Assembly (NCBI GenBank): GCA_049325335.1
Contig: JBMOMC010000006.1
Location: 64,001 to 128,000 of the forward strand
Direction: 5' to 3'
Length of the DNA stretch: 64,000 nucleotides
Origin: Nitrospirota bacterium
GTDB taxonomy: Bacteria; Nitrospirota; Nitrospiria; 2-01-FULL-66-17
The notes beneath the pieces were generated by a model. The model worked only from the letters and a program-made list of their open reading frames with translations, had not been told where the DNA came from and did not search any database. A program made the translations under genes and the position numbers. Within the stretch, counting starts at the first letter, position 1, and every line of letters begins with the position of its first letter. Shown in pieces: positions 4,276 through 46,516 of this stretch.

Positions 4276-4321
4276 GTTCCCACAAGCTGTCCACACGATT
4301 TTTCACAGCATCTGTGGAGGA
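4276..4321. promoter_or_regulatory. Cluster of DnaA-box-like 9-mers, candidate replication origin or DnaA-regulated site
   Basis: gttcccaca 4276, ctgtccaca 4287, tttttcaca 4299 (fits TTWTNCACA), inverted tgtggagga 4313; preceded by an AT-richer intergenic stretch. Confidence 0.4.
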
Positions 4322-4453
4322 GATTCTTGCGATCAAAGGGCACGGACGGGTGGTTTCCTTGACCCGTGGAGCCGCGACGGGCTATGCTGCGGTGCGGTTT
4401 TCGAGGGGCCTGCCTTGCCTGAACCCGGTTCCAGCGCCGTCGAGCGCGCATCG

Positions 4454-7303
4454 TTGTCCATCACGTCCTACCACGCCAAGTTTCTCGCCCATGAGCTGAC
4501 CAAACGCTGTGCCTCCGATACCATCGAGAAACTCGCCGGCGCGTTGGTGGACGCCCAGGTGGACCTCAATCCGCACCAGGTCGAAGCGGCCCTGTTCGCT
4601 TTCCGATCGCCGCTGTCCAAGGGCGCGCTGCTCGCCGACGAAGTCGGGTTGGGGAAGACGATCGAGGCCGGTCTGGTGCTCTCGCAGAAATGGGCGGAGC
4701 GAAAGCGGCGAGTCTTGGTGATCACGCCCTCCAATCTCCGCAAACAGTGGCATCAGGAGTTGACCGAGAAATTCTTCCTCCCGTGTCATATTTTGGAAAC
4801 CAAGTCGTACAAGGAAGCGATCAAACAGGGGCGGCCGCATCCGTTTCACGCCGACGCGATCATTATCTGCTCCTACCAATTCGCCCGCGGCAAGGCGGCT
4901 GACATCAGTTCGATCCCGTGGGACCTGGTTGTCATCGACGAGGCCCACCGACTGCGAAACGTCTACAAGCCGTCGAACATCATCGCGAATACGCTCAAAG
5001 AGGCGCTCAAACACGCTCCCAAGCTGCTGCTGACCGCCACGCCGCTCCAAAATTCCCTGCTGGAATTATTCGGCCTGGTGAGTTTCGTCGATGAACACGC
5101 GTTCGGGGATCTGAAGAGTTTTCGCGAACAATTTGCCTCGGTGAACGATCCCGCGGTCTTCGGCGCCCTCAGGGCGAGGCTCCGGCCGCTCTGCCATCGG
5201 ACGTTGCGGCGCCAGGTTCTTCCGTACGTGCGGTATACGAAGCGGCTGCCCATCGTCCAACCCTTTACGCCGGAGGAGGGCGAGGATCGGCTCTATCATT
5301 TGGTCTCCGACTACCTCCGTCGCGACAATCTGCAAGCCCTACCGTCAAGCCAGCGCACGCTCATGACGCTGGTGTTGCGGAAGCTGCTGGCCTCATCAAC
5401 GTTCGCGATCGCCGGGGCCCTTGAGACATTAAGCGGACGGCTTCAGGAGCGGTTGAAAGCGCAGGAGCCCGCGCAGCCCCTGGAAGACGAGTTGGACCAG
5501 GATTACGAAGCGCTCGACGAAACGGCCGAGGAGTGGTCCGAGAACGGAGGCCCTGAACCAATGTCAGCCGCCGATCGTGAAGCGATCGGGCGCGAGATCG
5601 CTGACTTGGACCGGTTCCGGGAACTGGCGGTCTCGATCACCCACAACGCCAAGGGCAAAGCCCTGCTCGTGGCGCTTGAGCGCGCCTTCACCGAGGCTGA
5701 CCGACTGAGAGCGCCGCGCAAAGCGATCATCTTCACCGAGTCGCGCCGCACGCAGGACTACTTGCTCCGAGTCCTGGCGGACGGGCCGTATCGCGACAAG
5801 ATCGTGCTCTTTAACGGCTCCAACACCGACGAAGGGTCTCGTCGCATCTATGCCGAGTGGGTCGAGCGGCATACCGGCACCGACCGCGTGACCGGCTCGC
5901 GCACCGCGGACATGCGCTCCGCGTTGGTCGACTATTTCAGAGAGCAAGGCCAGATCATGATTGCGACCGAGGCGGGGGCGGAGGGCATCAATCTCCAGTT
6001 CTGCGCGCTCGTGGTGAACTACGACCTGCCCTGGAACCCCCAGCGCATCGAACAGCGAATCGGCCGCTGCCATCGCTACGGCCAACAACACGACGTCGTG
6101 GTAGTTAACTTCCTGAATCAGACGAACGAGGCCGATCAACGCGTGTTCAGAATTCTGTCCGAAAAGTTCCGGCTCTTCGATGGCGTATTCGGCGCGAGCG
6201 ACGAAGTGCTCGGCGCCATCGAATCGGGCGTGGATTTCGAAAAGCGCATCGCGGACATCTACCAGCGCTGCCGGAAGCCGGAAGAGATCAACAATGCCTT
6301 CGACCAGCTTCAACTCGACCTGAGCACCCAGATCAACGACGCCATCACGAAAACGCGTCAACAACTGCTGGAGCACTTCGACGACGAAGTGCGGGAAAAA
6401 CTCCGCGTGAGCGACGAGAGTTCGCGCCAGTACCTGAATTATTTTGAGCGGATGTTGATGCGTCTCACCCGGTACGAACTCACTGGTCACACTGAGTTCC
6501 TCAGCGATTCGGCATTCCGCCTGAACGCCTGTCCGTTCGAAGGCGACATCCCGCTCGGCCTCTATGAACTCCCGCGTCGGTCGGGTGAAGCCCATTTCTA
6601 CCGCATGGGCCATCCACTGGCACAACGGATCCTTGACCAAGCCAAGAACCGCCCGCTGGCGCCCGCTCAAGTGGTCTTCGACCTGAGCCAATACGATGGG
6701 AAGGTCAGCGTCTTAGAACCGTTCCTCGGTCAGTCGGGCAGTCTCATGCTCGCTTTGCTCACGGTCGAATCCCTCGACCAGGCGGAAGATTATCTGCTCG
6801 TCGGCGCGGTGACTGATGACGGAAGAACGTTGGATGAGGACGCCGCACGCCGGTTGTTCGCCTTGCCGGGGCGCGTAGTCAAAGAGCTTGCTGGCGAGGG
6901 AGGCGACGCGGGATTGGAGGAGATCCTCCATCGGCGGCAAGAAACCATTCAGCGGACAATCGCGCAGCGCAATGCGGCGTTTTTCGAGGTGGAGGCGGAA
7001 AAGTTAGACGGCTGGGCCGATGATCTCAAAGTGGGCCTTGAGCGGGAGATCAAGGAAATGGATCGCCAGATCAAGGACGCCCGGAGGGCTGCGGCCGCAT
7101 CGCTGACCCTGGAGGAAAAGCTGGCGGGGCAAAAGGACGTCAAGGCTTTGGAAGGCCAGCGCAGCGCCAAGCGGCGGGCATTGTTCGATGCGCAGGATGC
7201 TATTGATCAGAGGCGCGAGCAGTTGATCGCAGAGATCGAGGGAAAGTTGCAACAGCGCGTGACACGGACAGGACTCTTTTCCATTCAATGGGTCCTAACG
7301 TGA
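4454..7303 (+). CDS. SNF2-family (RapA-like) helicase associated with type III R-M
   Basis: LLADEVGLGKT, VIDEAH, LLTATP, ATEAGAEGINLQ, YDLPWNPQRIEQRIGRCHRYGQ; C-terminal coiled coil; TTG 4454 preferred over 4238. Confidence 0.9.
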   Translation: MSITSYHAKFLAHELTKRCASDTIEKLAGALVDAQVDLNPHQVEAALFAFRSPLSKGALLADEVGLGKTIEAGLVLSQKWAERKRRVLVITPSNLRKQWHQELTEKFFLPCHILETKSYKEAIKQGRPHPFHADAIIICSYQFARGKAADISSIPWDLVVIDEAHRLRNVYKPSNIIANTLKEALKHAPKLLLTATPLQNSLLELFGLVSFVDEHAFGDLKSFREQFASVNDPAVFGALRARLRPLCHRTLRRQVLPYVRYTKRLPIVQPFTPEEGEDRLYHLVSDYLRRDNLQALPSSQRTLMTLVLRKLLASSTFAIAGALETLSGRLQERLKAQEPAQPLEDELDQDYEALDETAEEWSENGGPEPMSAADREAIGREIADLDRFRELAVSITHNAKGKALLVALERAFTEADRLRAPRKAIIFTESRRTQDYLLRVLADGPYRDKIVLFNGSNTDEGSRRIYAEWVERHTGTDRVTGSRTADMRSALVDYFREQGQIMIATEAGAEGINLQFCALVVNYDLPWNPQRIEQRIGRCHRYGQQHDVVVVNFLNQTNEADQRVFRILSEKFRLFDGVFGASDEVLGAIESGVDFEKRIADIYQRCRKPEEINNAFDQLQLDLSTQINDAITKTRQQLLEHFDDEVREKLRVSDESSRQYLNYFERMLMRLTRYELTGHTEFLSDSAFRLNACPFEGDIPLGLYELPRRSGEAHFYRMGHPLAQRILDQAKNRPLAPAQVVFDLSQYDGKVSVLEPFLGQSGSLMLALLTVESLDQAEDYLLVGAVTDDGRTLDEDAARRLFALPGRVVKELAGEGGDAGLEEILHRRQETIQRTIAQRNAAFFEVEAEKLDGWADDLKVGLEREIKEMDRQIKDARRAAAASLTLEEKLAGQKDVKALEGQRSAKRRALFDAQDAIDQRREQLIAEIEGKLQQRVTRTGLFSIQWVLT

Positions 7304-7448
7304 TCATGATCTCTAAGTCCTTCAATCAGTCCGATTGATGCGATTGAACGGTGCTATTGAAACCGGTATGCTAGGCCCGTTTGGGACTCTGTAGAAAGGG
7401 TGCTGAGCGGCTTTGGCCAAACCGCCCAAGGAGCGCATCAGTCCGCAG

Positions 7449-8423
7449 ATGGCACGATCTGATCTTCTCATATCGCTGGTCAAGACAGGGCGGGACAGTT
7501 CTAATCCGCGTTTCCGTCGCGCGGTCGAAGCCCTGATCGCAGAGGAGCGCGCTAAGAAGCACAATATGCTTGCAGACCAACTCGCCGCCGCTTACACTGA
7601 CCAATCTACGAACGGTCCGCCACGGCCCCTAAGTGCGCCGTCGGGAACCGTAGCCGATTTGGTGTACGAGATTGCTTCCGACCGTAGGCTCGACAGCCTC
7701 GTCTTGCCTCAGATAGTGGCCCAAGAGTGTCGGAGTCTGATCGAGGAGCATCGGCGTGCCGACCTTCTGCGTTCCTTTGGTCTTGCGCCGCGCCATCGTG
7801 TCCTTCTCGTCGGCCCACCCGGCAATGGAAAAACGTCTCTTGCAGAGTCACTGGCTCACGAGTTGATGGTCCCATTGCTGGCCATTCGATACGAAGGCCT
7901 TATCGGCAGCTACCTGGGCGAGACAGCGGCACGTCTGCGGAAAGTCTTTGATTATGCCCGACAGCGAGCGTGTTTGCTGTTTTTTGACGAATTCGAGACG
8001 CTGGGCAAAGAACGCGGTGATGAACACGAAACTGGAGAGATCAAGCGCGTGGTCAGCACGCTTCTACTGCAAATTGATAGCCTTCCTCCGCATGTTGTGG
8101 TGGTTACCGCGACAAACCATCGCGAGTTGTTGGACCGTGCGGTCTGGCGTCGCTTTCAACTTCGTCTTGAGCTGCCTAGTCCGACGAAGAGACAGGTGAC
8201 GCAATTCCTCGATCGTTTGTTCGCACAATTGGAGTTCGCGCGTACTCTGCCGGTAAGTACTTTCGCGGAGTCATTCCGCAGCGCGAGCTATTCCGAAATC
8301 GAGGACTTTGTGCGTGATCTTGCTCGTCGCTATGTTCTTGCAATTCCGAATGGCGACGTACGAAAGATCGCACGGGATCTGCTCGCCGCGTGGAAAGCTC
8401 GAGCGGGTTCCGAATCTCGATAA
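7449..8423 (+). CDS. ietA: AAA+ ATPase, IetA-like
   Basis: GPPGNGKT Walker A, FFDEFE Walker B, ATNH.ELLDRAVWRRF SRH; directly upstream of S8 protease. Confidence 0.8.
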   Translation: MARSDLLISLVKTGRDSSNPRFRRAVEALIAEERAKKHNMLADQLAAAYTDQSTNGPPRPLSAPSGTVADLVYEIASDRRLDSLVLPQIVAQECRSLIEEHRRADLLRSFGLAPRHRVLLVGPPGNGKTSLAESLAHELMVPLLAIRYEGLIGSYLGETAARLRKVFDYARQRACLLFFDEFETLGKERGDEHETGEIKRVVSTLLLQIDSLPPHVVVVTATNHRELLDRAVWRRFQLRLELPSPTKRQVTQFLDRLFAQLEFARTLPVSTFAESFRSASYSEIEDFVRDLARRYVLAIPNGDVRKIARDLLAAWKARAGSESR

Positions 8424-8438
8424 TCCAGGGGCACCCCA

Positions 8439-11054
8439 TTGCCCGACAAGCCGATTCTCATATTTCCAGCCGCGACTGTCGAAGCGCGACGACCACTTCC
8501 ACAGGGTTTCACTCCACCTCGTACACGACCGACGCAAGCACAGCAACGTAGACGTCTGGCAGCTCGATTTCAGGCACTTTCACAGAGCTTTGGGGTCGTC
8601 CGTGCAGATACGACTGGCCTCGATCCCGAGCAGGTCGTTGTTTTCGAGGTCGCTGGCGCCATCGCTGACTTTCAGAATGTCGTTAGGCGACTCGGGGGAA
8701 TGGAGTGGCTTGGTGATTTTGAAGTCGAGATCGCCGAGCCACCTCCAGCATTTTTCGAACAGGGCGTGTCCGTAACGCCGCTGGCGGGTCGGCTGTTCGT
8801 TGTCGTCAGCAACCAAGCAAAGCTCAACGAGATCGTCCGGCTCTGGCGGCTCTGGTGCCGATCAAGCGACGAAAAGCTCCCTCGTAACTTTGGGAAGTTA
8901 GCCGAGGTCTTTAAGCACCTGAACGACGTGCGTCCATGGGGCGTACAAGATCGCCTTCGAGAGCGCCGCGCTCTCGATTGGTGGAGGGACTGCCTTGCAG
9001 CGAATAAGGCGACTATTCGCTTTGAGGTCGAACTCTGGTGCCGTCAGTCGGCGGAGAAACAAGCCGAGGCTTACCGACACCTTCAGGGTGTCGTTCAGGA
9101 GATTCATGGTCAGTGCGTCACGCAGGCTGCCATTTGGGAGATCGATTATCATGGTGTACTCGTCGATCTTCCAGCATCGGCGGTCCAGGCCACGATAGAT
9201 GCACTCAACGCTCAGGGAGATACCAAGCTTCTGCGTCTCACCGACATCAAGTATTTCTGTCCGATGGGGCAAGTCGTCATAGCCCATCCGACAGAGTCGG
9301 CACCAGGCGACTTCCCCCAACAGCCGCGACCAGGCGGTGATCCGATTGTTGGCCTGTTAGATGGCCTTCCCCTCGAAAACCATGCAGCACTCCAGGATCG
9401 TCTCATTATCGATGACCCAGATGGCTTTTCTTCTCGGTACGGCGCAGGGGAGCAACGTCACGGCACGGCGATGGCTTCTCTAATCGTGCACGGCGAACTG
9501 GATGGAAACGAGGATGCACTTCTCCGCCCCGTGTATACGCGACCAATCATGTATCCCGGCAGCCCCAATATTAACCACATCCGATGGGAGCAGTTACCCG
9601 AGGGCAACCTGCCAGTTGATCTCACTTTTCGCGCGGTACGACGGATGTTCGAGAGTGACGGGGTGACACCTGCAGTTGCGCCAACCGTCAAGGTCATCAA
9701 CTTCAGTATTGGTGACGCAAATCAGCTCTTCGATCGCGAAATGAGTCCATGGGCTCGCTTGCTGGATTGGCTGGCGTGGAAATATAAGGTGGTGTTTGTC
9801 GTCAGCGCGGGCAACCACCACGGGAACGTTACATTGGAAACGCCCGCAGATCAGTTGATGACACTCGGCGATGACACGCTGCGCGCCCAGACGCTGCGCG
9901 CGATGGCGCGGGATCAATTGCAGCGACGTCTGCTTGCTCCGTCGGAGTCCGTCAATGCGGTTACCGTGGGAGCCGTACATGCGGATCTTGGGCCGAATAG
10001 CCCGCCCCCGAGCCTTGTGGATCCTCTTCGGAATGCCCGCTATTGCAGCCCGATTTCCTCTGTCGCCGGTGGGTTCCGACGATCCGTCAAGCCGGATATC
10101 TTGGTTGCTGGAGGCCGTCAACATTATCGGATACAGATGACGACGCCGAGTGCGAATCCGGCCGTGCTTGAGGTGCCGGAAAATCACAGCCAGCTTGGCC
10201 AGCGCGTGGCCGCTCCGGGTGGCATAGCGATTCCCCCAAATCACACGACACGTGTATGCGGAACCAGCAACGCTGCGGCTTTGACCACGCGTCGAGGTGC
10301 CCAATTGTACGATCAGATTCACGCTCTGCGCACAGAGCCGGGCGGCGAAGTACTGACGGACGACCTCGTTTCGGTACTAATCAAAGCGCTGCTTGTTCAT
10401 GGAACATCATGGAACGACATGGAAGGCGTGATTGGTTCTGCTCTGGATCAAGGCGACAACGGAAATACCCGATGGAATCGGGTGAAGCGCGCCTGTACCC
10501 AGTTTCTTGGATATGGCGAGGCGGATTGGGTTCGAGGCAGCGTGTGTACCGATCAGCGAGTCATCATGCTTGGAGTCGGTCGTCTTGAGGCGGACCGAGC
10601 ACACGTTTACGAGGTGCCTCTTCCGCCAGCGCTGAGTGCCCAGCGTGTCGGCAGGCGCCTGACGGTCACCCTGGCTTGGCTGACGCCAATCAATACGCGT
10701 CATCGTTCATACCGCGTGGCCTCGCTATGGTTTGACCCGCCATGCGACGCATTACAGTTGGAGAGACGGGATGGTCACCACGACACAGTAAACCGGGGAA
10801 CCGTTCAACATGAGATCCTTGAAGGCGACCGAGCGGTGCCGATCACTGTCGGCGATACCGCTACGGTGCAGGTCAACTGCCGATCTGATGCTGGAACAAA
10901 GCTGCCTTCTCCGATTCCATACGCGCTCGCAGTAACCCTCGAGGTCTCACGTCCCCTCGCGGTGAGTGTGTACGACGAGGTGAGGGTCGCTCTGGATCGA
11001 ATCCGCACAGTATCACGTGTCCGTCCTCCCGTTCGCACAGGTGGTCGTGGGTAG
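8439..11054 (+). CDS. ietS: Cytoplasmic S8 (subtilisin-like) serine protease, IetS-like
   Basis: Triad LLDG / HGTAMASL / GTSNAAA, VSAGN oxyanion motif, no signal peptide; paired with AAA ATPase. Confidence 0.8.
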   Translation: MPDKPILIFPAATVEARRPLPQGFTPPRTRPTQAQQRRRLAARFQALSQSFGVVRADTTGLDPEQVVVFEVAGAIADFQNVVRRLGGMEWLGDFEVEIAEPPPAFFEQGVSVTPLAGRLFVVVSNQAKLNEIVRLWRLWCRSSDEKLPRNFGKLAEVFKHLNDVRPWGVQDRLRERRALDWWRDCLAANKATIRFEVELWCRQSAEKQAEAYRHLQGVVQEIHGQCVTQAAIWEIDYHGVLVDLPASAVQATIDALNAQGDTKLLRLTDIKYFCPMGQVVIAHPTESAPGDFPQQPRPGGDPIVGLLDGLPLENHAALQDRLIIDDPDGFSSRYGAGEQRHGTAMASLIVHGELDGNEDALLRPVYTRPIMYPGSPNINHIRWEQLPEGNLPVDLTFRAVRRMFESDGVTPAVAPTVKVINFSIGDANQLFDREMSPWARLLDWLAWKYKVVFVVSAGNHHGNVTLETPADQLMTLGDDTLRAQTLRAMARDQLQRRLLAPSESVNAVTVGAVHADLGPNSPPPSLVDPLRNARYCSPISSVAGGFRRSVKPDILVAGGRQHYRIQMTTPSANPAVLEVPENHSQLGQRVAAPGGIAIPPNHTTRVCGTSNAAALTTRRGAQLYDQIHALRTEPGGEVLTDDLVSVLIKALLVHGTSWNDMEGVIGSALDQGDNGNTRWNRVKRACTQFLGYGEADWVRGSVCTDQRVIMLGVGRLEADRAHVYEVPLPPALSAQRVGRRLTVTLAWLTPINTRHRSYRVASLWFDPPCDALQLERRDGHHDTVNRGTVQHEILEGDRAVPITVGDTATVQVNCRSDAGTKLPSPIPYALAVTLEVSRPLAVSVYDEVRVALDRIRTVSRVRPPVRTGGRG

Positions 11055-11117
11055 CAATGATTCGTCGCGTTGGTATTTGAGACGCTTGTTAATACTGCAC
11101 CAGTGACCTGCTAAGAC

Positions 11118-12752
11118 ATGGATAGACGCCAAAAACTCGAACTCACTTGGATCGGGAAGGAGAACCGGCCAAAACTGGAGCCGCGGATTCTGCTGGCGGA
11201 CCCGAAGACGTCTTACCACGCACCACACCGAGTCACCGACCGCGACTTGTTCGACAACCGCCTCATTTTCGGCGACAACCTGCTCGCCCTCAAAGCCCTC
11301 GAACAGGAATTTTCTGGCAAGATCAAGTGCATTTTTATTGACCCACCGTACAATACCGGTGCAGCGTTCGAGCACTATGATGACGGGGTGGAACATTCGA
11401 CCTGGCTGTCGCTGATGCGCGATCGGCTAGAAATCATCTGGCGGCTGTTGTCCGACGACGGTTCGCTGTGGATCACCATCGATGACAACGAGGCGCATTA
11501 CCTGAAGGTGTTGTGCGATGAGGTGTTTGGGCGGGCCAACTTCGTTGCCTCGATGGTTTGGGAAAAAGACAGCGGGCGCAAGAACGATACAGACGTTTCT
11601 TCGTCGCACGACTATGTACTACTTTTCGCTCGCAATAGAGAGATATGGCGTAAGACGCGGAATCTGTTGGAGCGCAGCGACGAGCAGCTTGACCGGTATC
11701 AGAATCCCGATAACGACCCTCGGGGGGCGTGGAGACAAGGAGCTGACGGTACGGCAAAGAGTGGGAGCGAAAGTCTGCGCTATCCCATTACATTACCTTC
11801 GGGTAGGGTAGTAACACCTCCCTCTGGTAATTTTTGGAGGTTCAGTCGAGAAACCTTTGAAACGGCGGTTGCGGAGAATCGCGTCTACTTTGGGAAGGAC
11901 GGCAATCGCCTGCCGATCATTAAGAAGTACCTCTCCGAGATTCAAACCGGTATTGTGCCCAAAACATGGTGGCCTGCCGACGAGGTCGGATCGAACCAAG
12001 AAGCCAGGCGAGATCATTTGAGGAAGCTGTTACCCGACATCGAACCCTTTGCCACGCCCAAGCCGGAGCGGCTGCTCAAACGAATCGTTGAGATTGCCAC
12101 CAATCCCGGTGACTTGGTCCTTGACTCATTCGCCGGTTCCGGCACCACCGGGGCCGTCGCCCACAAGATGGGTCGTCGCTGGATCATGGTGGAGCTTGGC
12201 GAGCACTGCCACACGCATATCATTCCGCGTCTGAAGAAGGTCATCGACGGAACCGACAAGGGGGGAATCACCGAGGCCGTGGGCTGGAAGGGCGGCGGTG
12301 GGTTTCGTTATTACCGGCTGGCGCCGTCGCTGCTGGAGCAGGACAAGTGGGGGAATTGGGTTATCAATAAGGCGTACAACTCGGCGATGCTGGCCGAGGC
12401 TGTCTGCAAGCTGGAGGGATTCACGTACGCGCCCAGCGACGCGGCCTACTGGCAGCACGGTCACTCCACCGAGTGCGATTTCATCTACGTCACCACGCAG
12501 AATCTGAACCACGACCAGCTCCAGCAGCTCAGCGACGAGGTCGGCCCCAATCGCACGCTGCTCGTGATGTGCACCGCCTTCCGCGCCAAGCCGGATCGGT
12601 TTCCCAACCTGACGATCAAGAAGATCCCCAAGACCGTGCTCTCCCGGTGTGAGTGGGGCAAGGACGATTACAGCCTGCGCGTGGAGAACCTGCCGAAGGC
12701 GCCGCCCCCGATGGGGCAGCAGGAGTTGGAATTGGACCGAGATAAGAGATAG
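11118..12752 (+). CDS. mod: Type III restriction-modification methyltransferase Mod
   Basis: KLELTWIGK N-terminus, IFIDPPYNTG, FATPKPE.LL, LDSFAGSGTTG. Confidence 0.92.
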   Translation: MDRRQKLELTWIGKENRPKLEPRILLADPKTSYHAPHRVTDRDLFDNRLIFGDNLLALKALEQEFSGKIKCIFIDPPYNTGAAFEHYDDGVEHSTWLSLMRDRLEIIWRLLSDDGSLWITIDDNEAHYLKVLCDEVFGRANFVASMVWEKDSGRKNDTDVSSSHDYVLLFARNREIWRKTRNLLERSDEQLDRYQNPDNDPRGAWRQGADGTAKSGSESLRYPITLPSGRVVTPPSGNFWRFSRETFETAVAENRVYFGKDGNRLPIIKKYLSEIQTGIVPKTWWPADEVGSNQEARRDHLRKLLPDIEPFATPKPERLLKRIVEIATNPGDLVLDSFAGSGTTGAVAHKMGRRWIMVELGEHCHTHIIPRLKKVIDGTDKGGITEAVGWKGGGGFRYYRLAPSLLEQDKWGNWVINKAYNSAMLAEAVCKLEGFTYAPSDAAYWQHGHSTECDFIYVTTQNLNHDQLQQLSDEVGPNRTLLVMCTAFRAKPDRFPNLTIKKIPKTVLSRCEWGKDDYSLRVENLPKAPPPMGQQELELDRDKR

Positions 12753-12759
12753 CGCGCGA

Positions 12760-12999
12760 ATGAAGCGACCTATGCGGGCGACGTTGTATCACCGGATTCG
12801 GGAGATTCTGGAATCGGCCCGGACCCGCGTGGCGCGGACGGTCAACACCACATCCTGGGACACGCCGACATCACAACAATCGGAGATCTGGTACGCACCG
12901 TGTACCGAATCCTGGAAGCCGGGCCGGCTTCACCCGAACTTCGTTTGGACCCATTTGGGCTGGCATCCGGCGCGCGCACCGCGAAAGCGCACGCCGTGA
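12760..12999 (+). pseudogene. Internally deleted DUF1016/YhcG-like remnant
   Basis: LYHRIREILESARTRVARTVNT resembles the DUF1016 N-terminus and WKPGRLHPNFVWTH a later LSWTH block; 79 aa, no nuclease domain; stop overlaps res start (GTGA). Confidence 0.6.
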
Positions 13000-15692
13000 A
13001 CCGCCACGTCAACGCCATTGCCGGTCGCTTGAGCCTGCGGCCCCCGCAGCGCCGTTCGCTGGAGATCCTCGACCGGATCACCGAGATCGCGCCGCCCAAG
13101 AAGGCCGTGGACCTGTCGTCGGCACTCGCCGCGATCCGCAGCGAGTTTCCGACCGTGACGGATTTCGAGCGGGAATTCCCGTCGCTCTGCTTCGCCCTGG
13201 CCACCGGCGTGGGCAAGACTCGGCTCATGGGCGCCTTCATCAGCTATTTGCACTTGGCGCATGGCATCAACCACTTCTTCGTGCTGGCGCCAAATCTCAC
13301 GATCTACAACAAGTTGATCACCGACTTTACGCCGAACACGCCCAAGTACGTGTTCAAAGGCATCGCCGAGTTCGCCACCGAACCGCCCCAGATCATCACC
13401 GGAGACAACTACGAGACCGGAATCGGCGTCCGTGAAGGACGACTGTTTGAGAGCGGCATCCACGTGAACATCTTCAACATCTCCAAGATCAATTCCGAGG
13501 TCCGCGGCGGCAAGTCCCCGCGCATCAAGCGCCTCTCGGAGTACATCGGCGAGAGCTACTTCGATTATCTCGCGGGCCTGGACGACCTGGTGCTGATCAT
13601 GGACGAATCGCATCGCTACCGGGCATCGGCCGGGGTGCGGGCGATCAACGAGCTGAAGCCGGTGTTGGGTCTGGAACTGACGGCCACGCCGGTCGTGGAA
13701 ACGGCCAAGGCCGCAGTGCGCTTCAAGAACGTGATCTATGACTACCCACTGGCGAACGCCATGGCCGACGGTTTCGTGAAAGAGCCGGCCGTGGTCACGC
13801 AGAAGAACTTCGACCCCAGACAGTTCACCCCACCGCAGATCGAGGAGATCAAGCTCCAGGACGGCGTGCGGCTGCACGAGAACACCAAGGTCGAACTGGA
13901 GACGTACGCCCGACAGACCGGGCAGCGGATCGTCAAGCCCTTCATGCTGATTATCGCGCGCGACACCACGCACGCCGGGCAACTGATGCAACTGATACAG
14001 TCCGCGAAATTCTTCGATGGGCGCTACAAGGACAAGGTCATCCAGGTGGACTCCAGCAGGACCGGCGCGGAAGAAGACGAGATGGTGCAGCGCCTGCTCG
14101 CGGTGGAGAGCCCTGATGAACCGACCGAGATCGTGATCCACGTCAACATGCTCAAGGAAGGGTGGGATGTCACGAACCTTTATACGATCGTCCCACTCCG
14201 GGCGGCCAATGCGCGCGTCCTGATCGAGCAGTCGATTGGTCGCGGATTGCGCCTGCCCTACGGCAAGCGAACCGGGGTGAGCGCGGTGGACCGGCTGAGC
14301 ATCGTGGCGCACGATCGCTTTCAGGAGATCATTGACGAGGCGAATCGGCCCGATTCAGTGATCCGTCTGGCGCAGGTGGTTCTGGATCCAGCGACGGATC
14401 TCCAGAAGACCCGAACCGTGATTGCGCAATCGAACGTGGCCGCGCAGATCGGCATGGCTCCGGCAACCCCGGGGGGTACGCTTCCCGCACCGGAAACAGT
14501 GGTCACTCCGCTGTTTACAACCGAGGCGGAGAAGAAGATCGCGCAGGCCGCGTATGAGGTGATCCGGCGATACGAACACCTTCCCGCGTCGACCGACCTG
14601 CTCAAACCGGACATCCAGGCAAGTCTCGTGAAAGAAGTCGCGGAGTACTTGACTCCCACCCAGCAGGCGCTGCCGGGCGTCACCGAGCCGGCCGATATTC
14701 CGGCCGTGGTCGCCAAGACCTTGCAGTTTGTCGTCCAGCAAACGATCGACATTCCTCGCATCCTCGTCGTCCCCAAGGGCGACGTGACCACGGGGTTTCA
14801 CCCGTTTACGCTGGGTTGCTCCGGCATCCGCTATCAGCCGGTTGAACGGGACTTGCTGATCCAGCATCTGCGAACGCACGCGCAGGAGACGTTAAGTTTC
14901 GGCGCCGGTCACCAACAGGAGCTGCGGCTCGAAGATTACCTGGTGCGAGGGCTCATCGACTTCGACGATGTCTCATACGACGAACACGCCGACCTGCTCT
15001 ACGACCTCGCCGGGCAACTGGTGGCACACCTGCGGTCGTATCTCTCGGAGGAGGACGCGCGAAACGTGTTGATCTACCATCAGCGGCAACTCGCCGCGTT
15101 CATCCACGCACAAATGCAGGCGCATCAGTGGGAGAAGGCGGCGGGATACGACGTCGTGGTGAGCAAAGGCTTTACCGAACTCAAACCCAGTGCCCATACG
15201 GTCCGGGACGGCGACCCGATTCATGATTTCCGCCAGACCGTGGAGGACAAGAGCCGGATCGCGCAATTGCTATTCGGCGGGTTCCAGCGCTGTCTGTATC
15301 GCGTCCAGAAGTTCCAATCCGACACCGAGCGCAAGCTCGCCGTGATCTTGGACCGTGAGGCGCTGAAGTGGTTCAGGCCTGTTCAAGGGCAGTTCCAGAT
15401 CATCTATAAACGGGGGGCGGACCAGCCCGAATACGTGCCGGATTTTGTGGCCGAAACGGCCACTGGAATCTATATGCTGGAGCCCAAAGCGCGGAGCGAA
15501 ATGACGGACGCCGATGTCCTGGCAAAAAGGGACGCCGCGGTCCAATGGTGCGCCCACGCATCGAATCACGCCCTCCAGAATGGCGGGAAGCCCTGGAAGT
15601 ACGCCCTCATTCCGCACGATGCGATTGCGGAGAACATGACGCTTGCGGGGTTGGTGAGCCAGTTCGCGATTATGCCTCAGGGGGCGATATAG
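12996..15692 (+). CDS. res: Type III restriction enzyme Res subunit (SF2 helicase + PD-(D/E)XK nuclease)
   Basis: LATGVGKT, MDESH, LTATP, LKEGWDV, EQSIGRGLR, C-terminal YVPDFV...LEPK. Confidence 0.92.
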   Translation: MNRHVNAIAGRLSLRPPQRRSLEILDRITEIAPPKKAVDLSSALAAIRSEFPTVTDFEREFPSLCFALATGVGKTRLMGAFISYLHLAHGINHFFVLAPNLTIYNKLITDFTPNTPKYVFKGIAEFATEPPQIITGDNYETGIGVREGRLFESGIHVNIFNISKINSEVRGGKSPRIKRLSEYIGESYFDYLAGLDDLVLIMDESHRYRASAGVRAINELKPVLGLELTATPVVETAKAAVRFKNVIYDYPLANAMADGFVKEPAVVTQKNFDPRQFTPPQIEEIKLQDGVRLHENTKVELETYARQTGQRIVKPFMLIIARDTTHAGQLMQLIQSAKFFDGRYKDKVIQVDSSRTGAEEDEMVQRLLAVESPDEPTEIVIHVNMLKEGWDVTNLYTIVPLRAANARVLIEQSIGRGLRLPYGKRTGVSAVDRLSIVAHDRFQEIIDEANRPDSVIRLAQVVLDPATDLQKTRTVIAQSNVAAQIGMAPATPGGTLPAPETVVTPLFTTEAEKKIAQAAYEVIRRYEHLPASTDLLKPDIQASLVKEVAEYLTPTQQALPGVTEPADIPAVVAKTLQFVVQQTIDIPRILVVPKGDVTTGFHPFTLGCSGIRYQPVERDLLIQHLRTHAQETLSFGAGHQQELRLEDYLVRGLIDFDDVSYDEHADLLYDLAGQLVAHLRSYLSEEDARNVLIYHQRQLAAFIHAQMQAHQWEKAAGYDVVVSKGFTELKPSAHTVRDGDPIHDFRQTVEDKSRIAQLLFGGFQRCLYRVQKFQSDTERKLAVILDREALKWFRPVQGQFQIIYKRGADQPEYVPDFVAETATGIYMLEPKARSEMTDADVLAKRDAAVQWCAHASNHALQNGGKPWKYALIPHDAIAENMTLAGLVSQFAIMPQGAI

Positions 15693-15727
15693 GCGGGTAG
15701 GGGCAGTATCCTCCAAGTTTGGTGATC

Positions 15728-16318
15728 TTAGCGGGGCCCCCGACGAAGGCTTATCCGCCGCCGTAATTGAAGTGCAACACCACTTAAATTCCGACGCGAT
15801 ACGAGCATTGGCAGAGAGACGCGATACTGCTCGCACGCCGCGTCATCGGGAATCTGATGTCTAGCGATATAGAGCAACGCTTCTCTGGGAAGTAGAAGGC
15901 ATCCTGAGAACCACGCTGCCTCATCTTCCTGTTTCTGGTCGTAGCTCCGCATCACCCAGGCTCCATCTTGCGAGATGACCAGCCGGCTTGCCTCATGGCC
16001 TATGAGAATATGTGCCAACTCGTGCATTTGATCGCTTGATTGTCGCCCGAAAGAATGTTTGGGATTGTAGACCACAATGTGTCGTCCAGCACTTTCAACC
16101 GTTACTGCTGACCAACCATCTGGATCTGCATTGAGAAGCTGGCGCTTGTGGGACGGTTCGAGCCCCTGGACATCATGTGGAGTAATCAGCTCAACTTTGA
16201 GGAATCGTGCCAGGTCCGGAGCAAACAATGGACCATGGGCCTGAACACCGAGTTCTCGCCGAACACCTACCGAGGTGCGCTCAGCCCAGATTTTGAATCC
16301 CCGGTCAAATGTCGCCAT
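15728..16318 (-). CDS. ImmA/IrrE (CapP-like) metallopeptidase
   Basis: HELAH zinc motif, QEDEAAWFSGCLLLP; overlaps the XRE gene end. Confidence 0.88.
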   Translation of the reverse strand: MATFDRGFKIWAERTSVGVRRELGVQAHGPLFAPDLARFLKVELITPHDVQGLEPSHKRQLLNADPDGWSAVTVESAGRHIVVYNPKHSFGRQSSDQMHELAHILIGHEASRLVISQDGAWVMRSYDQKQEDEAAWFSGCLLLPREALLYIARHQIPDDAACEQYRVSLPMLVSRRNLSGVALQLRRRISLRRGPR

Positions 16319-16691
16319 CTCGCAAATCTTGATCGGGTTGCGGCTGTGTCTCGGCAACCAGCGAAATCATCGAAACGAGGGCCTGCAGAGTCTCCTGCTT
16401 CGGCGCCCGGTCTGAACGAAGGTGTGCCGATACGTGGATTTTGGCCGGTCGACGTGCCTGCTCATCATGATGTTTGGCCTGTTCGACAGTAAATCCCATT
16501 AGTTCATTGGGATCAACTTGGAGCCACCTGCAGACCTTGGTGAAGGTGGCAATATCGGGCGTTCGGCCATTTTCAATCCGCATGAGCGTCGCCGGACTGA
16601 TCCCAATCTCGCCTGCGGTCTCGCGCAATCGTCGACTTCCCCGTTTTGCCTTGACGAAAGCCCCAAGGCCTTCCAACGTTCGTCTCGCCAT
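16305..16691 (-). CDS. XRE-family HTH transcriptional regulator (CapH/ImmR-like)
   Basis: LRETAGEIGISPATLMRIENGRTPDIATFTKVCRWL; ggagga RBS. Confidence 0.88.
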   Translation of the reverse strand: MARRTLEGLGAFVKAKRGSRRLRETAGEIGISPATLMRIENGRTPDIATFTKVCRWLQVDPNELMGFTVEQAKHHDEQARRPAKIHVSAHLRSDRAPKQETLQALVSMISLVAETQPQPDQDLRDGDI

Positions 16692-41982: not shown

Positions 41983-42143
41983 CTGGATGCAGGTGGTCGG
42001 CATCGCTGCCCGGAGCGCCGTCCCAAAGCAAGGGCACCCTGGTGAGGTGGTGCGGCCCGGTCCGCTGCGTTCGTTCTCATCCCAACTGCTTGGAAGAAAA
42101 TGCTTGACCTCGTGGTTTATAGAGTGTTACGTTTTTAAAACAA

Positions 42144-42596
42144 ATGCTACCACTGGTTGGATATATAAGAAGTGCTCAGGCGGCGTTGTGGATCGTCCTG
42201 CTGGCATTCGGGCTTGACGGCCTGGTCTGGGATGGCGGCCTCGTCAATCACGCCCACACCGATGGAGAGCGATTTCATACACACCGGGACCTGCACAGGG
42301 CGGGTTTGGAGTCTCACGTCCACGCCCGTGATCATGGGCACGACCACGGTCCGACCGCTGTTCCTCACGATGCTGACGCGCTGTCCGGTATGTATTGGAC
42401 GGCGGCGGCCGGTCCCAACGACGGATTCCTTCACAGTCACGACGACGACCATGCGAGCGGCAAGTTTTTCCCGCCAAAGAAGGGCGAGGTATTCCACACG
42501 CCGCTTGGGGCGCTAGAAAACCCACCGCCAGCGTCATCCGACCCCGCGAAGCCTGAGGCTCCGCACTCGCGCGGCCCGCCTTTCCTGCTCGTCTAG
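42144..42596 (+). CDS. His-rich leader protein with C-terminal RGPP (candidate ribosome-arrest peptide)
   Basis: Hydrophobic N-terminus, many HxH repeats, ends HSRGPPFLLV; TTGACC at 42104 upstream. Confidence 0.65.
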   Translation: MLPLVGYIRSAQAALWIVLLAFGLDGLVWDGGLVNHAHTDGERFHTHRDLHRAGLESHVHARDHGHDHGPTAVPHDADALSGMYWTAAAGPNDGFLHSHDDDHASGKFFPPKKGEVFHTPLGALENPPPASSDPAKPEAPHSRGPPFLLV

Positions 42597-42680
42597 CCTG
42601 ACGTTTTTTTACCCCTTGAATGCAAGCCCGGCCGCGCGATCGGCTTGGAGAAGCCGGTCCGGGCCGACGAGACAAAGGAG
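42579..42680 (+). promoter_or_regulatory. Putative SD-sequestering RNA structure
   Basis: CCTTT 42579 / AAAGG 42674, CTCGTC 42588 / GACGAG 42666, gcccgg 42626 / ccgggc 42659, inner hairpin atcggctt-ggag-aagccggt. Confidence 0.55.
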
Positions 42681-42685
42681 AGCCT

Positions 42686-43876
42686 ATGGAGCGCGTGATG
42701 CATGCCATCACGAGAGGAACGTGTGCGTTCGTGATGGCCCTGTTGGGCGCAAGCGTGGTGGGCGTGCCGGCCGCCAGCGCCCACACCAAAGGGATCAGCC
42801 TCAGTCGGTATGGCTTGATCGATATGTCGTGGACGGGCAACGTCTTGTACTCCAGCTACAGCGACTACGTGAACGCCTATCCCCAGCTCCGGCCGTACAT
42901 CGGCGGGGCGTTGCGCCAGGGGTTGGTGCTCAAGAGCTTTGACGTCTCGGTTACGCAGGATCTGTATCAATATCCCGCCAAAGCCGCGGTGTTCCTCGCG
43001 TTCGGCCAAGATTCGGCCGCGATCGAGGAGGCGTTCTTTCTCTTCCATAAGATGCCGTATCAGACCCAACTGAAGGTCGGGCAATTCCGCGCCCAGTTCG
43101 GCAAGTTGAACCAGTACCATGACCACGAATGGATCTTTGCCAACCCTCCAATGATCACCACCGTGCTCGCCAGCGACGATGGGTTCAAGATCCTGGGCGG
43201 CGAACTGACATGGCAACCGCCCTTGGGGCAGTTCGTGGAACTTGCAGTGGACGTCGGCCGCCGGGACACGCTGGGCGTCTTTCAGGCCAAGCCCGATCCG
43301 GTTGATCCGACCGAGCCGGACGCGACCGACATGTTTGTCATTACCAAATTTACGCACTACGTGGACCTCACGGACGCGTCGAGCTGGGAGTGGGGCGCCA
43401 CGTACGCCCAAGGGGGCAACAATTCGGATCCCGGCAACGACGATCAGGATCGCATCTACGGCTTAGATTTCACGTACAAATACAAACCAGCCCCGTTTAG
43501 TCCGTACGTGCGCTGGACCACCGAGTTGTTCCACGATACGAAGGAACTGACGCGCGTCGGGCTTCCGAATGAGATCGTCAAAGGCGTCTACTCTGAGGTC
43601 GACTATCGAGTGACCTACAATTGGGCACTTGGCGCCCGGTTCGACGCAGTCGCAGGCGACGTGGACCCGATCGATGCCGCGCTGGGTGACGTGACCCGCA
43701 CGCGTTATTCCGGCGGTATCCGCTATTTCTTCAACCCGGTGTCGCGTTTGAACCTTCAATTTGATCATATTCCGTCGGCTGACTCGGCGCCGGCGTCTAA
43801 CGTCGTCATCCTCCAGCTCAACGTGGGAGGAGGCACCGTAACCCCTGGTGTCGGGAAATTCTACACGCTATGGTAA
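42686..43876 (+). CDS. Outer-membrane beta-barrel of the type found with metal ABC uptake operons
   Basis: Signal ..ASA, IEEAF, LKVGQFRAQFGKLNQYHDHEW, YGLDF.YK, alternating strands. Confidence 0.7.
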   Translation: MERVMHAITRGTCAFVMALLGASVVGVPAASAHTKGISLSRYGLIDMSWTGNVLYSSYSDYVNAYPQLRPYIGGALRQGLVLKSFDVSVTQDLYQYPAKAAVFLAFGQDSAAIEEAFFLFHKMPYQTQLKVGQFRAQFGKLNQYHDHEWIFANPPMITTVLASDDGFKILGGELTWQPPLGQFVELAVDVGRRDTLGVFQAKPDPVDPTEPDATDMFVITKFTHYVDLTDASSWEWGATYAQGGNNSDPGNDDQDRIYGLDFTYKYKPAPFSPYVRWTTELFHDTKELTRVGLPNEIVKGVYSEVDYRVTYNWALGARFDAVAGDVDPIDAALGDVTRTRYSGGIRYFFNPVSRLNLQFDHIPSADSAPASNVVILQLNVGGGTVTPGVGKFYTLW

Positions 43877-43911: not shown

Positions 43912-44871
43912 ATGCTGTCATCTCGGATCATCGCAATCGCCGCGGTGGTCGGCCTTCTGGCCTCAACGGCCGGCTCCGCCTCCGCAGCACTCAAGATCGT
44001 CACCTCGTTTCCGCAGGATGCCTCGATCGCCAAGGCGATCGGCGGGGAGCGTGTCGAGGTGGTAAGCCTCACGACGGGCGTCCAGAACCCTCACGCGGTG
44101 GATCCCAAACCGTCCTTTGCGATTCACCTGAACAAGGCCGACCTGCTGATCGTCAACGGCCAGAACATGGAGATGGCGTGGTTACCCATCGCCCTCACAA
44201 CCAGCCGGAACCCCAAGATTCTTGAAGGCGCGGACGGCTACCTGGATCCGTCACAAGGGATTACGTTCATCCCCTACTCGCAGGACGAACTCCAGGCCAC
44301 GCCGTTTTTTTCACTGAACCTGATCGTCGGCGATCCGACCAAGACGGGGAATCACCACTACTGGCTGGATCCGGAAAATGGCTTGGTTGTGGCGAAGAAC
44401 ATTCATGACAAGTTGGTCGCAATGGACCCAGACGGCGCCGAGATCTACACCGCGAATTACGAAGCGTTCACGGCAAAGCTCAAGGCGAAGATCACCGAAT
44501 GGGATCGGATGATGGCGCCGTTCAAGGGAATGAAAATTGTGAGCTATCACCGTGACTGGATCTACCTCACGAAGCGCCACGGATTGGCTCTGTTCGCATA
44601 CATCGAGCCGCGCGAGACGATTCCGCCGAGCGCGGGTGAGGTCGCGGCGCTGATCAAAAAGATGAAAGACAAGCACGTCCCCGTCGTCCTGGTGTCGCCG
44701 TGGCAGCCCCAGAAGATCTCGAAGGAGATCGCTCAACAGACGGGAGCCCACTTCGTGTCGCTGCCATCCACGGTCGATGAGCGGTTTGGCGCGAAGGATT
44801 ACATCGGGCTGTTCGACGTGATCTACGGCGACCTGACCAAGGCGCTCACCGATGCGAACCCTGGGCGTTGA
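43912..44871 (+). CDS. Zn/Mn ABC transporter substrate-binding protein (ZnuA/TroA-like)
   Basis: NPH, ADLLIVNG..ME..W, GNHHYWLDPEN, SYHRDW, IEP. Confidence 0.88.
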   Translation: MLSSRIIAIAAVVGLLASTAGSASAALKIVTSFPQDASIAKAIGGERVEVVSLTTGVQNPHAVDPKPSFAIHLNKADLLIVNGQNMEMAWLPIALTTSRNPKILEGADGYLDPSQGITFIPYSQDELQATPFFSLNLIVGDPTKTGNHHYWLDPENGLVVAKNIHDKLVAMDPDGAEIYTANYEAFTAKLKAKITEWDRMMAPFKGMKIVSYHRDWIYLTKRHGLALFAYIEPRETIPPSAGEVAALIKKMKDKHVPVVLVSPWQPQKISKEIAQQTGAHFVSLPSTVDERFGAKDYIGLFDVIYGDLTKALTDANPGR

Positions 44872-44900: not shown

Positions 44901-45677
44901 ATGACGACGCAGATCCAAGCCGAACATCTGGCGATCGGCTATCACGGGAGAGCGATCCTCACGGACATTTCCCTGAAGATCGCTCCGGGCTCGTTCTGGG
45001 GCATCGTCGGCCCGAACGGGTCGGGCAAGACTACGTTGGTGAAGACGCTGGCCGGCATCTTGCCTTCTATTGGCGGACGGCTTGATCGCTCGCCGGAGCT
45101 CCGTTTTGGCTACGTGCCACAGCGCAACAATCTGGACGATATCTTTCCGCTCACGGTCTTGGACGTCGTGCTCATGGGGCGGTTCCCCAGGCTCGGCGTG
45201 GGGCGGCGGGTCAGGAAGGCCGACCGCGACCTGGCGCTGGATTACATGCGCCAAGTCGCGGTCGATCACCTCTCCGACCGACCGTTCCGGATCTTGTCCG
45301 GCGGCCAAAAACAGCGCGCACTGATCGCACGAGCCCTCACGTTCGAACCTGACGTCTTGGTGTTCGACGAACCCACGACTGGGATGGACCTGTCGGGTGA
45401 GCTGGAGATGATGCAATTGATCCTTGAACTGCATCAGCGGTCGGGGCGCACCGTGTTGATGATCACGCACGATTTGAATCTGATTGCCAACTATGCCGAA
45501 TCATTGATCGTGGTCCACGAGGAGCAGGTGATGACGGGGGAGGTCTCGCAGATCATGCGCGACGAGACGTTGGGGCGGATCTATCGCCAGAACATCCACG
45601 TCCACAGCATCCACGGCCGCACGCACGTCTTCGTGCATGGTCACGGCCGACACGACCGTTCGCGAGGGCGCGGGTGA
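44901..45677 (+). CDS. Metal ABC transporter ATPase (ZnuC-like)
   Basis: GPNGSGKT, GYVPQ, LSGGQKQR, FDEPTTG, His-rich tail. Confidence 0.9.
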   Translation: MTTQIQAEHLAIGYHGRAILTDISLKIAPGSFWGIVGPNGSGKTTLVKTLAGILPSIGGRLDRSPELRFGYVPQRNNLDDIFPLTVLDVVLMGRFPRLGVGRRVRKADRDLALDYMRQVAVDHLSDRPFRILSGGQKQRALIARALTFEPDVLVFDEPTTGMDLSGELEMMQLILELHQRSGRTVLMITHDLNLIANYAESLIVVHEEQVMTGEVSQIMRDETLGRIYRQNIHVHSIHGRTHVFVHGHGRHDRSRGRG

Positions 45678-46516
45678 GTATTTGGGAGGCCCTGCCGATC
45701 CTCCAGAATGGTCTGGCGGCGTGTGTGATCACCGCGCTGGTCTGCTCGTTCCTCGGCGTATACGTGGTGTTGAAGCGCGTGGTGTTCGTGACAGCCGCCC
45801 TGTCGCAGACCGCCTCTTTGGGAATCGCGGGCGCGATGTTCCTGGGAGCGATGATCGGCGGCACCGGGCCAGACCACATCGGTTCGGTTTGGCCAATCGT
45901 CGCCGCGGTGGCCGCGAGTTGCGGACTGGCCGCCGTCCTGGCGTTCCAGCACGCCGAGCGTCGCCTCACGCGCGAGAGTCTGTTGGGCGTGGGCTATATC
46001 GTGCCCTCGGGCATTGCCTTACTGTTACTGGACTACGTCGGGGGCGCGACGCACGACATCGAGAACCTGCTGTTCGGGAACGCGGTGTTTGTCTCGACGG
46101 CACAGGTGCTGGTATTGGCGCTCGTGGCCGCGGTGGTCCTGGGTGTACACGCGTTGTTGTACAAAGAGTTTGTGTTTGTGGCGTTCGACCTGGAGACGGC
46201 GAAGGCGTCAGGAATGCGCACGGGGGCGCTCAACCAGGCGCTGTTTGCGTCGATCGGGCTGACGATCGCGGTGACGATCAGCTCGGTGGGCGCGTTGCCG
46301 GTGTTCGCGTTTATGGTCGTCCCGTCCGCCGCGGCGCTGCTGCTGACCCGCCGGCTCGCGCAAACCTTCGTGCTGTCCGCGGCCATCGGGGTGGCCGCCG
46401 CGCTGATCGGATTTTATGCCTCATTTCAATGGAGGCTGCCCACTGGCCCCGCGATGATCGCCGTCGCGTCCGCGTTTCTCGTACCCGGCGTGCTGGCGAG
46501 GAGGCGCAGCGGATGA
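45674..46516 (+). CDS. Metal ABC transporter permease (ZnuB-like)
   Basis: LGVYVVLKR..F...ALSQ, LLFGN, AFD...A, VP.AAA. Confidence 0.9.
   Translation: MSIWEALPILQNGLAACVITALVCSFLGVYVVLKRVVFVTAALSQTASLGIAGAMFLGAMIGGTGPDHIGSVWPIVAAVAASCGLAAVLAFQHAERRLTRESLLGVGYIVPSGIALLLLDYVGGATHDIENLLFGNAVFVSTAQVLVLALVAAVVLGVHALLYKEFVFVAFDLETAKASGMRTGALNQALFASIGLTIAVTISSVGALPVFAFMVVPSAAALLLTRRLAQTFVLSAAIGVAAALIGFYASFQWRLPTGPAMIAVASAFLVPGVLARRRSG

Follow-up and report, generated by a model that had tools for sequence, protein, structure and literature searches.

We analyzed a 64,000-nucleotide stretch of DNA from a Nitrospirota bacterium (GenBank assembly GCA_049325335.1, contig JBMOMC010000006.1), in which an operon for a predicted outer-membrane porin and an ATP-binding cassette (ABC) importer is headed by a short His-rich open reading frame (ORF) ending in an Arg-Gly-Pro-Pro (RGPP) motif. 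Sequence comparisons suggest that this leader is a nickel-sensing arrest switch that gates the predicted porin and importer, with metal-bound His residues releasing a predicted ribosome stall; we place the probability of this reading at about 0.55. It is likely that the leader is a metal-coupled arrest leader of some kind, and nickel would fairly probably be the sensed metal rather than zinc. The most specific form of the proposal is offered more tentatively: that a six-histidine sensor on a 44-residue ruler and the repressor NikR together gate nickel import through a 16-stranded porin and an ABC transporter of the ZnuA family whose present annotation is zinc uptake.

Positions are those of the whole stretch, here called the window (G000:C6:64001-128000). 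Labels beginning with G denote genomes and those beginning with L denote loci; G000 is the host genome, which is 99% complete.

A His-rich leader ending in an arrest-type motif

The leader has the following features.

42144..42596, plus strand: leader ORF, His-rich and Cys-free, ending in RGPP and four more residues (ORF reading, homologues)
42174..42230, plus strand: hydrophobic segment near the N-terminus covering residues 11-29, either a signal peptide or an anchor (hydropathy, low-confidence model)
42249..42284, plus strand: two conserved His-x-His (HxH) motifs, His36, His38, His45 and His47, around Gly41 (alignment)
42432..42440, plus strand: third conserved HxH, His97 and His99, with His99 44 residues before the arrest Arg (alignment, spacing counts)
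42570..42581, plus strand: RGPP arrest-type motif, residues 143-146 (Arg and both Pro invariant in the alignment)

The predicted protein has 150 residues, including 16 His, six HxH motifs and no Cys, and RGPP is followed by four residues and the stop codon. The initial annotation had correctly reported a Cys-free ORF of 150 residues with dense HxH repeats and RGPP, but had placed the start of the feature at 42104, which is a -35-like hexamer and not an ATG. It had also reported an export-like N-terminus. A moderately hydrophobic stretch is indeed present (best 19-residue Kyte-Doolittle mean 1.7; residues 4-27 modeled as a helix with low confidence), in which a signal peptide and a membrane anchor are not told apart. 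The structure model as a whole is weak (predicted local distance difference test, pLDDT, 62; predicted template modeling score 0.30) and gives no geometry for the His site. Neither the leader nor the porin matches any Pfam or NCBIfam family, and DUF2946 (PF11162) matches neither the leader nor any of the 42 rows of its family at E values up to 0.5.

RGPP is an arrest core in other peptides, where it gave the most robust arrest in several contexts and resisted elongation factor P (EF-P) (PMC12992588). By itself, the motif in the leader is not beyond chance: RAPP or RGPP falls within the last 15 residues of 121 of the 45,139 stop-to-stop frames of at least 40 residues in the host genome. Random frames of a genome so rich in G+C often carry such C-terminal motifs, and it is therefore the conservation of the motif that counts.

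A leader family with a 44-residue ruler

A search with the leader returned four other homologues, a close one labeled Nitrospirota by its source. Inspection upstream of porin orthologues gave three more leaders, and a later search one more. An eight-sequence profile found 40 hits in a representative library, of which 37 end in RAPP or RGPP; since the profile includes the motif and its spacing, motif counts among its hits are biased upward. CxxC is absent from 39 of the 40 and Cys altogether from 12, so that many members without CxxC still carry scattered Cys. When hits were rescored with the His domain alone, ten proteins reached E < 0.001 and every one of them keeps the motif; six are training rows or near copies. 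Five proteins (P0027, P0029, P0034, P0036 and P0044) were omitted from alignment A4. In a 42-row alignment, His36, His38, His45, His97, His99, Arg143, Pro145 and Pro146 are invariant and His47 is present in 40 rows; the tail after the motif measures 3-9 residues in 39 of 42. The motif is retained across at least two phyla.

The spacing between the metal motif and the stall site is nearly constant. By an alignment-free count, 44 residues run from the second His of the last HxH to the arrest Arg in all ten genomic loci, five of which (L002, L031, L032, L034 and L040) were reached through the porin and not the leader; among 44 proteins the count is 44 in 41 and 45 in three. By comparison, the stretch between the second and third HxH (His47-His97) varies from 38 to 71 residues. 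CruR (Bp2923, DUF2946/PF11162) of Bordetella pertussis, whose arrest was shown in PMC12992588, has 45 residues between CxxC (after Cys93) and RAPP, and its regulation was lost when five residues were added (PMC9426467). The same number, 45, separates His97 from RGPP in the leader. This ruler is the strongest sign that the His cluster and the stall may be coupled. Together with the conserved R[AG]PP and the position of the leader as first gene of a metal-import operon, it supports a resemblance to CruR/CutF-type arrest leaders, of which the initial annotation had named CruR.

At family loci, the leader is the first gene, on the same strand as a porin or other barrel gene and a ZnuA-family ABC system downstream; in L032 it sits behind another gene cluster, and the sequence of L040 ends after the porin. 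The spacer to the next gene is 71-155 nucleotides at nine loci and 89 at the window. The family also heads an unrelated barrel gene (G059, G081, G065 and G089), and the leader thus travels with function. No new leader turned up among 201 genomes searched from the phylum to which G451 belongs.

The host genome has other leaders of this general kind. A second class (L111:3785-5534; G000:C1, about 128,100-131,570, minus strand) heads a paralogous porin-binding protein-permease operon and has a membrane segment, His at about -61, -50 and -40 and one Cys at -48 from the Arg, and an RGPP or RAPP end. This His/Cys class was found in 19 of the 21 loci L010-L030, the other two lacking upstream DNA; it has no NikR box and is possibly a zinc counterpart. 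Kinship with the window leader was considered and rejected, the two being unrelated outside RGPP (probability 1.5%). A third His-rich leader (G000:C2:214,381-214,746, minus strand) ends in RAPP, has two or three Cys and precedes an ApbE-like and a thioredoxin-like gene (both recognized by eye) and a barrel gene.

Predicted pairing of the leader tail with the Shine-Dalgarno sequence

Three elements at the leader-porin junction are involved.

42580..42593, plus strand: anti-Shine-Dalgarno strand within the last leader codons (pair probabilities, controls, identity in the same-genus relative)
42630..42665, plus strand: stable intergenic hairpin that brings the anti-Shine-Dalgarno and Shine-Dalgarno strands together (pair probabilities 0.95-1.0; kept in the same-genus relative)
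42674..42682, plus strand: Shine-Dalgarno (SD) sequence of the porin gene (sequence, fold)

In the predicted fold, 42580-42593 pairs with 42666-42682 at probabilities of 0.82-0.98; within it, 42580-42585 pairs with 42677-42682 (0.85-0.96) and 42588-42593 with 42666-42671 (0.84-0.98). The tail/SD complementarity reported in the initial annotation is real, but the register is shifted, and the predicted one buries the GGAG core more fully. Of the further nested stems reported there, the same-genus relative retains the hairpin at 42630-42665 and lacks the stem at 42596-42627.

Several controls bear on this helix. The 181-nucleotide region folds with z = -1.96 (4 of 200 shuffles equally good). The tail/SD duplex, at -20.6 kcal/mol, is stronger than synonymous recodings of the tail (mean -14.2, p = 0.025) and than all 72 upstream in-frame windows of the leader, and the tail pairs best with its own SD region among 27, of which 26 are foreign. 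The pairing bases are identical in the same-genus relative, in which neighboring spacer bases vary. When the bases covered by a ribosome with Pro145 in the P site are masked, the predicted cost of opening the porin start region falls from 12.5 to 5.5 kcal/mol; at the window locus, this geometry fits the masking of the anti-SD strand by a stalled ribosome that had been suggested from the sequence. A tail-swap comparison with the SD regions of other loci (p = 0.0003) was discounted because G+C content covaries within a genome.

Across the family, tail/SD pairing lies above the null mean in seven of nine His-class loci, that is, loci with the window-type leader. Taking both classes together, 19 of 27 leaders, which are kin and not independent, have CCT as the first Pro codon of the motif, vs 4.5 expected (L013 was excluded, as its start codon is uncertain, and L023 and L020 lack upstream DNA); genome-wide, CCT accounts for 14% of first prolines in Pro-Pro pairs. 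This bias fits an anti-SD role and also a C-rich Rho site. An Rfam scan gave no riboswitch at the window locus or just upstream of the porin in the 29 loci scanned; L046 has one cobalamin aptamer 2.8 kb upstream. The plus strand showed no intrinsic terminator, and the U-run after the leader stop is missing from the same-genus relative.

A predicted NikR-type operator at the leader promoter

42104..42133, plus strand: putative sigma-70 promoter, with a -35-like hexamer at 42104-42109 and a TG-extended -10-like element ending at 42133 (by sequence; kept in the same-genus relative)
42124..42150, plus strand: predicted NikR operator of 7-13-7 layout, spanning the -10 region together with the start site and the ATG of the leader (matrix ranking, published consensus)

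The promoter did not pass a consensus promoter scan and is putative. The leader mRNA would be nearly leaderless, as no SD precedes the ATG.

The 7-13-7 palindrome was first seen at promoters of leaderless porin orthologues and matches the published NikR consensus (PMC545781); the window site agrees with that consensus in 7/7 positions of the left arm and 3/7 of the right. Of 28 nikR loci examined, 16 have this palindrome ahead of nikR, and in two of the 16 the right arm is exactly that of the window site. With a matrix built from these 16 sites (nikR promoters of another family, none from porin or leader loci, and picked after the sites had been seen), the window site ranks first among 6,497,928 positions on the arms only and second with the spacer included, alongside a site just downstream of the host nikR. 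With this matrix, five of eight His-class promoters score at least 17; L034 has a partial site, and L040 and L032 have none at the leader. Eight of 25 other porin orthologues score at least 14, and none of 18 His/Cys-class promoters scores above 7. Another leader locus (L095) also carries a NikR-type box, and in L032 the leader lies behind a CbiM/NikM-like gene (recognized by eye) headed by a box with 7/7 matches in both arms. The NikR evidence is regulatory and independent, and it points to nickel as the metal of the His-only leader.

Gene neighborhoods also point to nickel. A nikR gene lies within the gene run behind the His leader in G059, G081, G083 and G089. In G059, G081 and G089 the run consists of the leader, a different barrel gene, a DUF4198 gene, a three-His binding protein, nikR, an ATPase and, where the sequence extends that far, a permease; in G083, nikR comes after the leader-porin-ABC genes. 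A DUF4198 protein encoded next to nikR binds Ni with a dissociation constant of 18 nM (PMC12537917). nikR is present in G000 and in all five genomes checked, and the host NikR retains the His/His/His/Cys region of NikRs of solved structure. Nickel-enzyme families occur in leader-bearing relatives: a hydrogenase-like hit in G003, urease in G059, LarA-family proteins in G451, G452 and G455 and nickel superoxide dismutase in G452.

The downstream operon and its surroundings

42686..43876, plus strand: predicted 16-stranded outer-membrane porin (model pLDDT 78; template modeling score 0.62 to OprP; no Pfam match)
43912..44871, plus strand: cluster A-I (ZnuA/TroA family) solute-binding protein (PF01297; three His at metal-ligand positions)
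44901..45677, plus strand: ABC ATPase, ZnuC/AztA-like (family matches)
45674..46516, plus strand: ABC-3 permease, ZnuB/AztB-like (family matches)

The initial annotation had called this operon ZnuACB-like and had left Zn, Ni and Co open as the sensed metal. Its genes do belong to the ZnuA, ABC_tran and ABC-3 families, but the reading as a zinc system does not hold up as well: the predicted NikR operator, with nikR and DUF4198 in related operons, singles out nickel. All the ABC genes fall below the NCBIfam cut-offs for ZnuA, ZnuB, ZnuC and Azt. In the binding protein, whose ligands are conserved, His213 aligns with a Glu of MntC. Porin His33 directly follows the presumed signal peptide, and all 11 close orthologues compared keep it.

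F-type tra genes lie on both sides of the operon and a CzcCBA/ZntA-type efflux block; the block is also present in a genome of the same genus, at 87% DNA identity. Positions 18891-55235 of the window form an F-type conjugative element (TraD-like, TraE, TrbI, TraC, TraU, TraN, TraF, TraH and TraG), split by a metal cargo of CzcCBA-like efflux genes, a P-II-like protein, a ZntA-like ATPase and the leader-porin operon. Positions 1-16357 are defense-like, with an HNH nuclease, an SNF2 helicase, an AAA ATPase and subtilase pair, type III restriction-modification genes and an IrrE-like protein.

Further observations were made at related loci. A His directly after the presumed signal-peptide end is found in the porin (window 42782-42784) and, at L104:10293-12128, in the alternative barrel and a DUF4198 protein, as in the DUF4198 Ni site. 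At L111:12309-15226 (G000:C1:138,300-141,230), nikR is followed by a near-perfect NikR box and by genes for an OprB-family porin and a binding protein of the ZnuA family with three His; this arrangement recurs in many Nitrospiria, and in the Nitrospira-like family nikR precedes a TonB-receptor-like gene. In L003, L006, L007, L038 and L042, a His-rich protein of 80-115 residues, with no signal segment and no RAPP, takes the place of the leader upstream of the porin and behind a NikR-type box; it possibly serves nickel storage. L004 and L009 share a leaderless element about 100-300 nucleotides upstream of the porin. It contains a pair of similar short repeats and a hairpin resembling a terminator, and has no Rfam match and no NikR box. 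In G+C-rich orthologues without leader or NikR box (L050-L078), a short palindrome recurs upstream of the porin, possibly the site of another regulator; the operons there carry two tandem binding proteins. Finally, His-containing exported-type genes without RAPP directly precede CzcC/CusB-like efflux genes at L111:11719-12249 and L103:814-1326, in a CzcI-like position.

Proposed mechanism

At low nickel, NikR would be off the DNA, and the leading ribosome would stall at RGPP and cover the anti-SD strand, so that the porin and ABC genes are translated. The N-terminal segment may send the nascent chain to the Sec translocon. The stall would place Pro145 in the P site; CruR has been shown to stall with its two prolines in the P and A sites (PMC12992588). 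About 46 residues would then separate His99 from the P site, placing the His cluster just clear of the tunnel or translocon. As nickel rises, the three HxH motifs may fold around Ni(II) and pull the chain free, allowing the ribosome to finish; after termination, the anti-SD helix would re-form over the SD and shut off the porin gene. Nickel-loaded NikR would also block the promoter. Nickel would then restrain the operon twice, acting on transcription from within the cytoplasm and on translation probably from outside it.

Counter-evidence and alternative explanations

A number of observations weigh against this reading. At the window locus, the stalled state keeps a weak local hairpin that pairs part of the SD, and no compensatory change was seen in the helix on comparison with the same-genus relative. 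Conservation of both motif and pairing had been proposed as a check. The motif is conserved; among nine His-class loci, anti-SD pairing reaches p <= 0.05 in only two, and the opening cost falls by at least 2.5 kcal/mol in just four. This leader and this porin occur together at only five distinct loci besides the window, most close porin orthologues having no such leader. The choice of the 16-site set after inspection tempers the operator ranking, and a matrix of the seven most symmetric sites ranks the window site 93rd on the arms alone and second with the spacer (one of its sites was a hairpin from a leader operon, L132, which the 16-site matrix does not contain). The loose consensus matches 136 sites in the genome, and the left arm of the window box coincides with the extended -10. 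In the class, 75 of 121 genomes carry nikR, and the gene also adjoins His/Cys-class operons, in G043 and in the host genome itself. As to the metal, the transporter is annotated as ZnuA-type, its family is classically one for Zn/Mn, and its binding protein is a three-His member of the ZnuA family; one cluster among the porin look-alikes bears the name 'zinc-regulated'; efflux genes of CzcCBA and ZntA type are found immediately upstream; and G000 showed no [NiFe]-hydrogenase motifs, urease, acireductone dioxygenase, LarA, carbon monoxide dehydrogenase/prismane protein or nickel superoxide dismutase.

All the points about the metal speak for the same arrest switch sensing and importing zinc or cobalt, with the NikR-like site a remnant or a secondary control. 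His-only sites bind Zn well, and the Zn/Cd-type efflux neighbors would suit such a role. Yet NikR-type boxes stand at His-class promoters and at eight of 25 other porin orthologues and at none of the His/Cys class, nikR and DUF4198 occur in related operons, and no Zur-type palindrome was noticed, though no Zur-matrix search was made; two Fur-family genes are present. The operator, together with nikR and DUF4198 in related operons, is the reason that nickel is favored, and we regard zinc or cobalt as unlikely. How the stall is read out is a separate matter, on which Rho-type control is a live alternative, because at just two of the nine family loci does SD occlusion clearly exceed chance. The stalled ribosome might act mainly on transcription by shielding a C-rich site from Rho, its release leading to termination before the porin, with the SD helix secondary. 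By analogy with CruR, whose output is Rho termination (PMC9426467), and given a genome that encodes Rho, an excess of C over G across 42500-42640 (24/18, 27/16 and 21/13) and a pyrimidine-rich tail that suits either role, this is conceivable and compatible with the nickel-switch reading. The helix at the window locus is strong, specific to its own SD region and identical in a relative in which flanking bases vary, and the spacer is short, as in CutF-type loci; as the main output, Rho control therefore seems improbable.

The leader protein might alternatively act mainly as an exported His-rich metal chaperone or as a monitor of Sec activity, the metal having no control over the stall. Its 16 His exceed the need of one site, and leaderless orthologous operons often have a small His-rich, RAPP-free protein in its place (the five loci noted above). 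A free chaperone would have no use for a fixed 44-residue His-to-Arg spacing around a variable middle, and the motif is kept across phyla; we consider this explanation quite unlikely. Least likely of all is the opposite polarity, in which metal binding would strengthen the stall and turn the downstream genes on, as in CutF, which shares the SD-unmasking output and stalls when induced by copper (PMC9973294; bioRxiv 10.1101/2025.02.05.636593). Here the downstream genes are of import type and under a predicted repressor site, and RGPP, a strong and EF-P-resistant arrest core, suits a stall that is on by default.

If the nickel-switch reading is true, nascent-chain metal sensing extends beyond copper. 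In the literature consulted, the demonstrated cases involve only copper and only Cys ligands, and the leader family would be a His-only case with an exact spacing rule. The ZnuA-family transporters and the unannotated porin of Nitrospirota and Methylomirabilota would then likely be nickel importers, and their annotation would be corrected. The NikR-box-free His/Cys leader in the same genome would form a natural pair with this one for metal discrimination by nascent chains. As cargo of an F-type conjugative element, the module can spread.

Comparison with known systems

The literature searched, which excludes most subscription papers, offered nothing on a nickel- or zinc-sensing arrest leader or on a cluster A-I importer under NikR control. 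Contrary to what the initial annotation had supposed, leaders free of Cys are not entirely novel: PMC9973294 reports two clusters of His-only CutF-like leaders (14 and 17) that lie upstream of HupE/UreJ and for which Ni/Co sensing was suggested on bioinformatic grounds. They share with the window leader the His-only metal motif, the proline-type tail and the proposed Ni/Co sensing. Their downstream genes differ, and no HupE/UreJ neighbor was seen at loci of the present family; the comparison is by description, so that some sequences may overlap. The HupE-linked leaders of PMC12992588 file 8 seem different on inspection by eye, and none of those counted has an HxH 44 residues before the Arg. 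The same paper lists RAPP leaders before metal genes, nine rows of them before 'zinc-regulated' receptors. These rows likewise have a RAPP leader before a barrel gene of roughly 400 residues, probably of the porin superfamily, but are mostly of CxxC type and, as listed, have no NikR link.

The delta-proteobacterial NikR regulon (PMC545781) has the same operator layout and consensus and also controls nickel import. The targets given there are NikMNQO/NikKL systems of the energy-coupling factor type rather than a porin combined with an ABC transporter of the ZnuA family, with no mention of an arrest leader.

The leader would work like CruR and CutF, and it lies outside DUF2946. CutF of Rhodobacter capsulatus (PMC9973294; bioRxiv 10.1101/2025.02.05.636593) is an exported nascent sensor whose stall melts an SD-hiding stem across a short spacer; the window leader has a short spacer too, and may share the export and the stem opening. 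CutF differs from it in having Cys ligands, a PPP motif and a dependence on EF-P, and in stalling in response to copper to induce a detoxifying oxidase; here, the terminal codons of the leader itself supply the anti-SD strand, and the predicted target is an importer. CutF requires its signal sequence (bioRxiv 10.1101/2025.02.05.636593), whereas CruR does not (PMC9426467).

Several differences separate CruR from the window leader: the family of the latter has no DUF2946 match in 42 members, lacks CxxC in nearly all profile hits and has three HxH motifs instead; a porin and a cluster A-I ABC system replace the TonB receptor of the CruR operon; and predicted nickel sensing, NikR co-control and SD occlusion stand against Rho termination. 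In its architecture, CruR is a close parallel. Both are the first gene of a metal-import operon (a predicted one here) and end in a RAPP-type motif shortly before the stop codon; the N-terminus is of export type in CruR and may be so here; both keep a fixed distance from metal motif to Arg, counted as 45 residues after Cys93 in CruR and after His97 here; and in both the stall would be released by metal, a step that is predicted for the leader described here.

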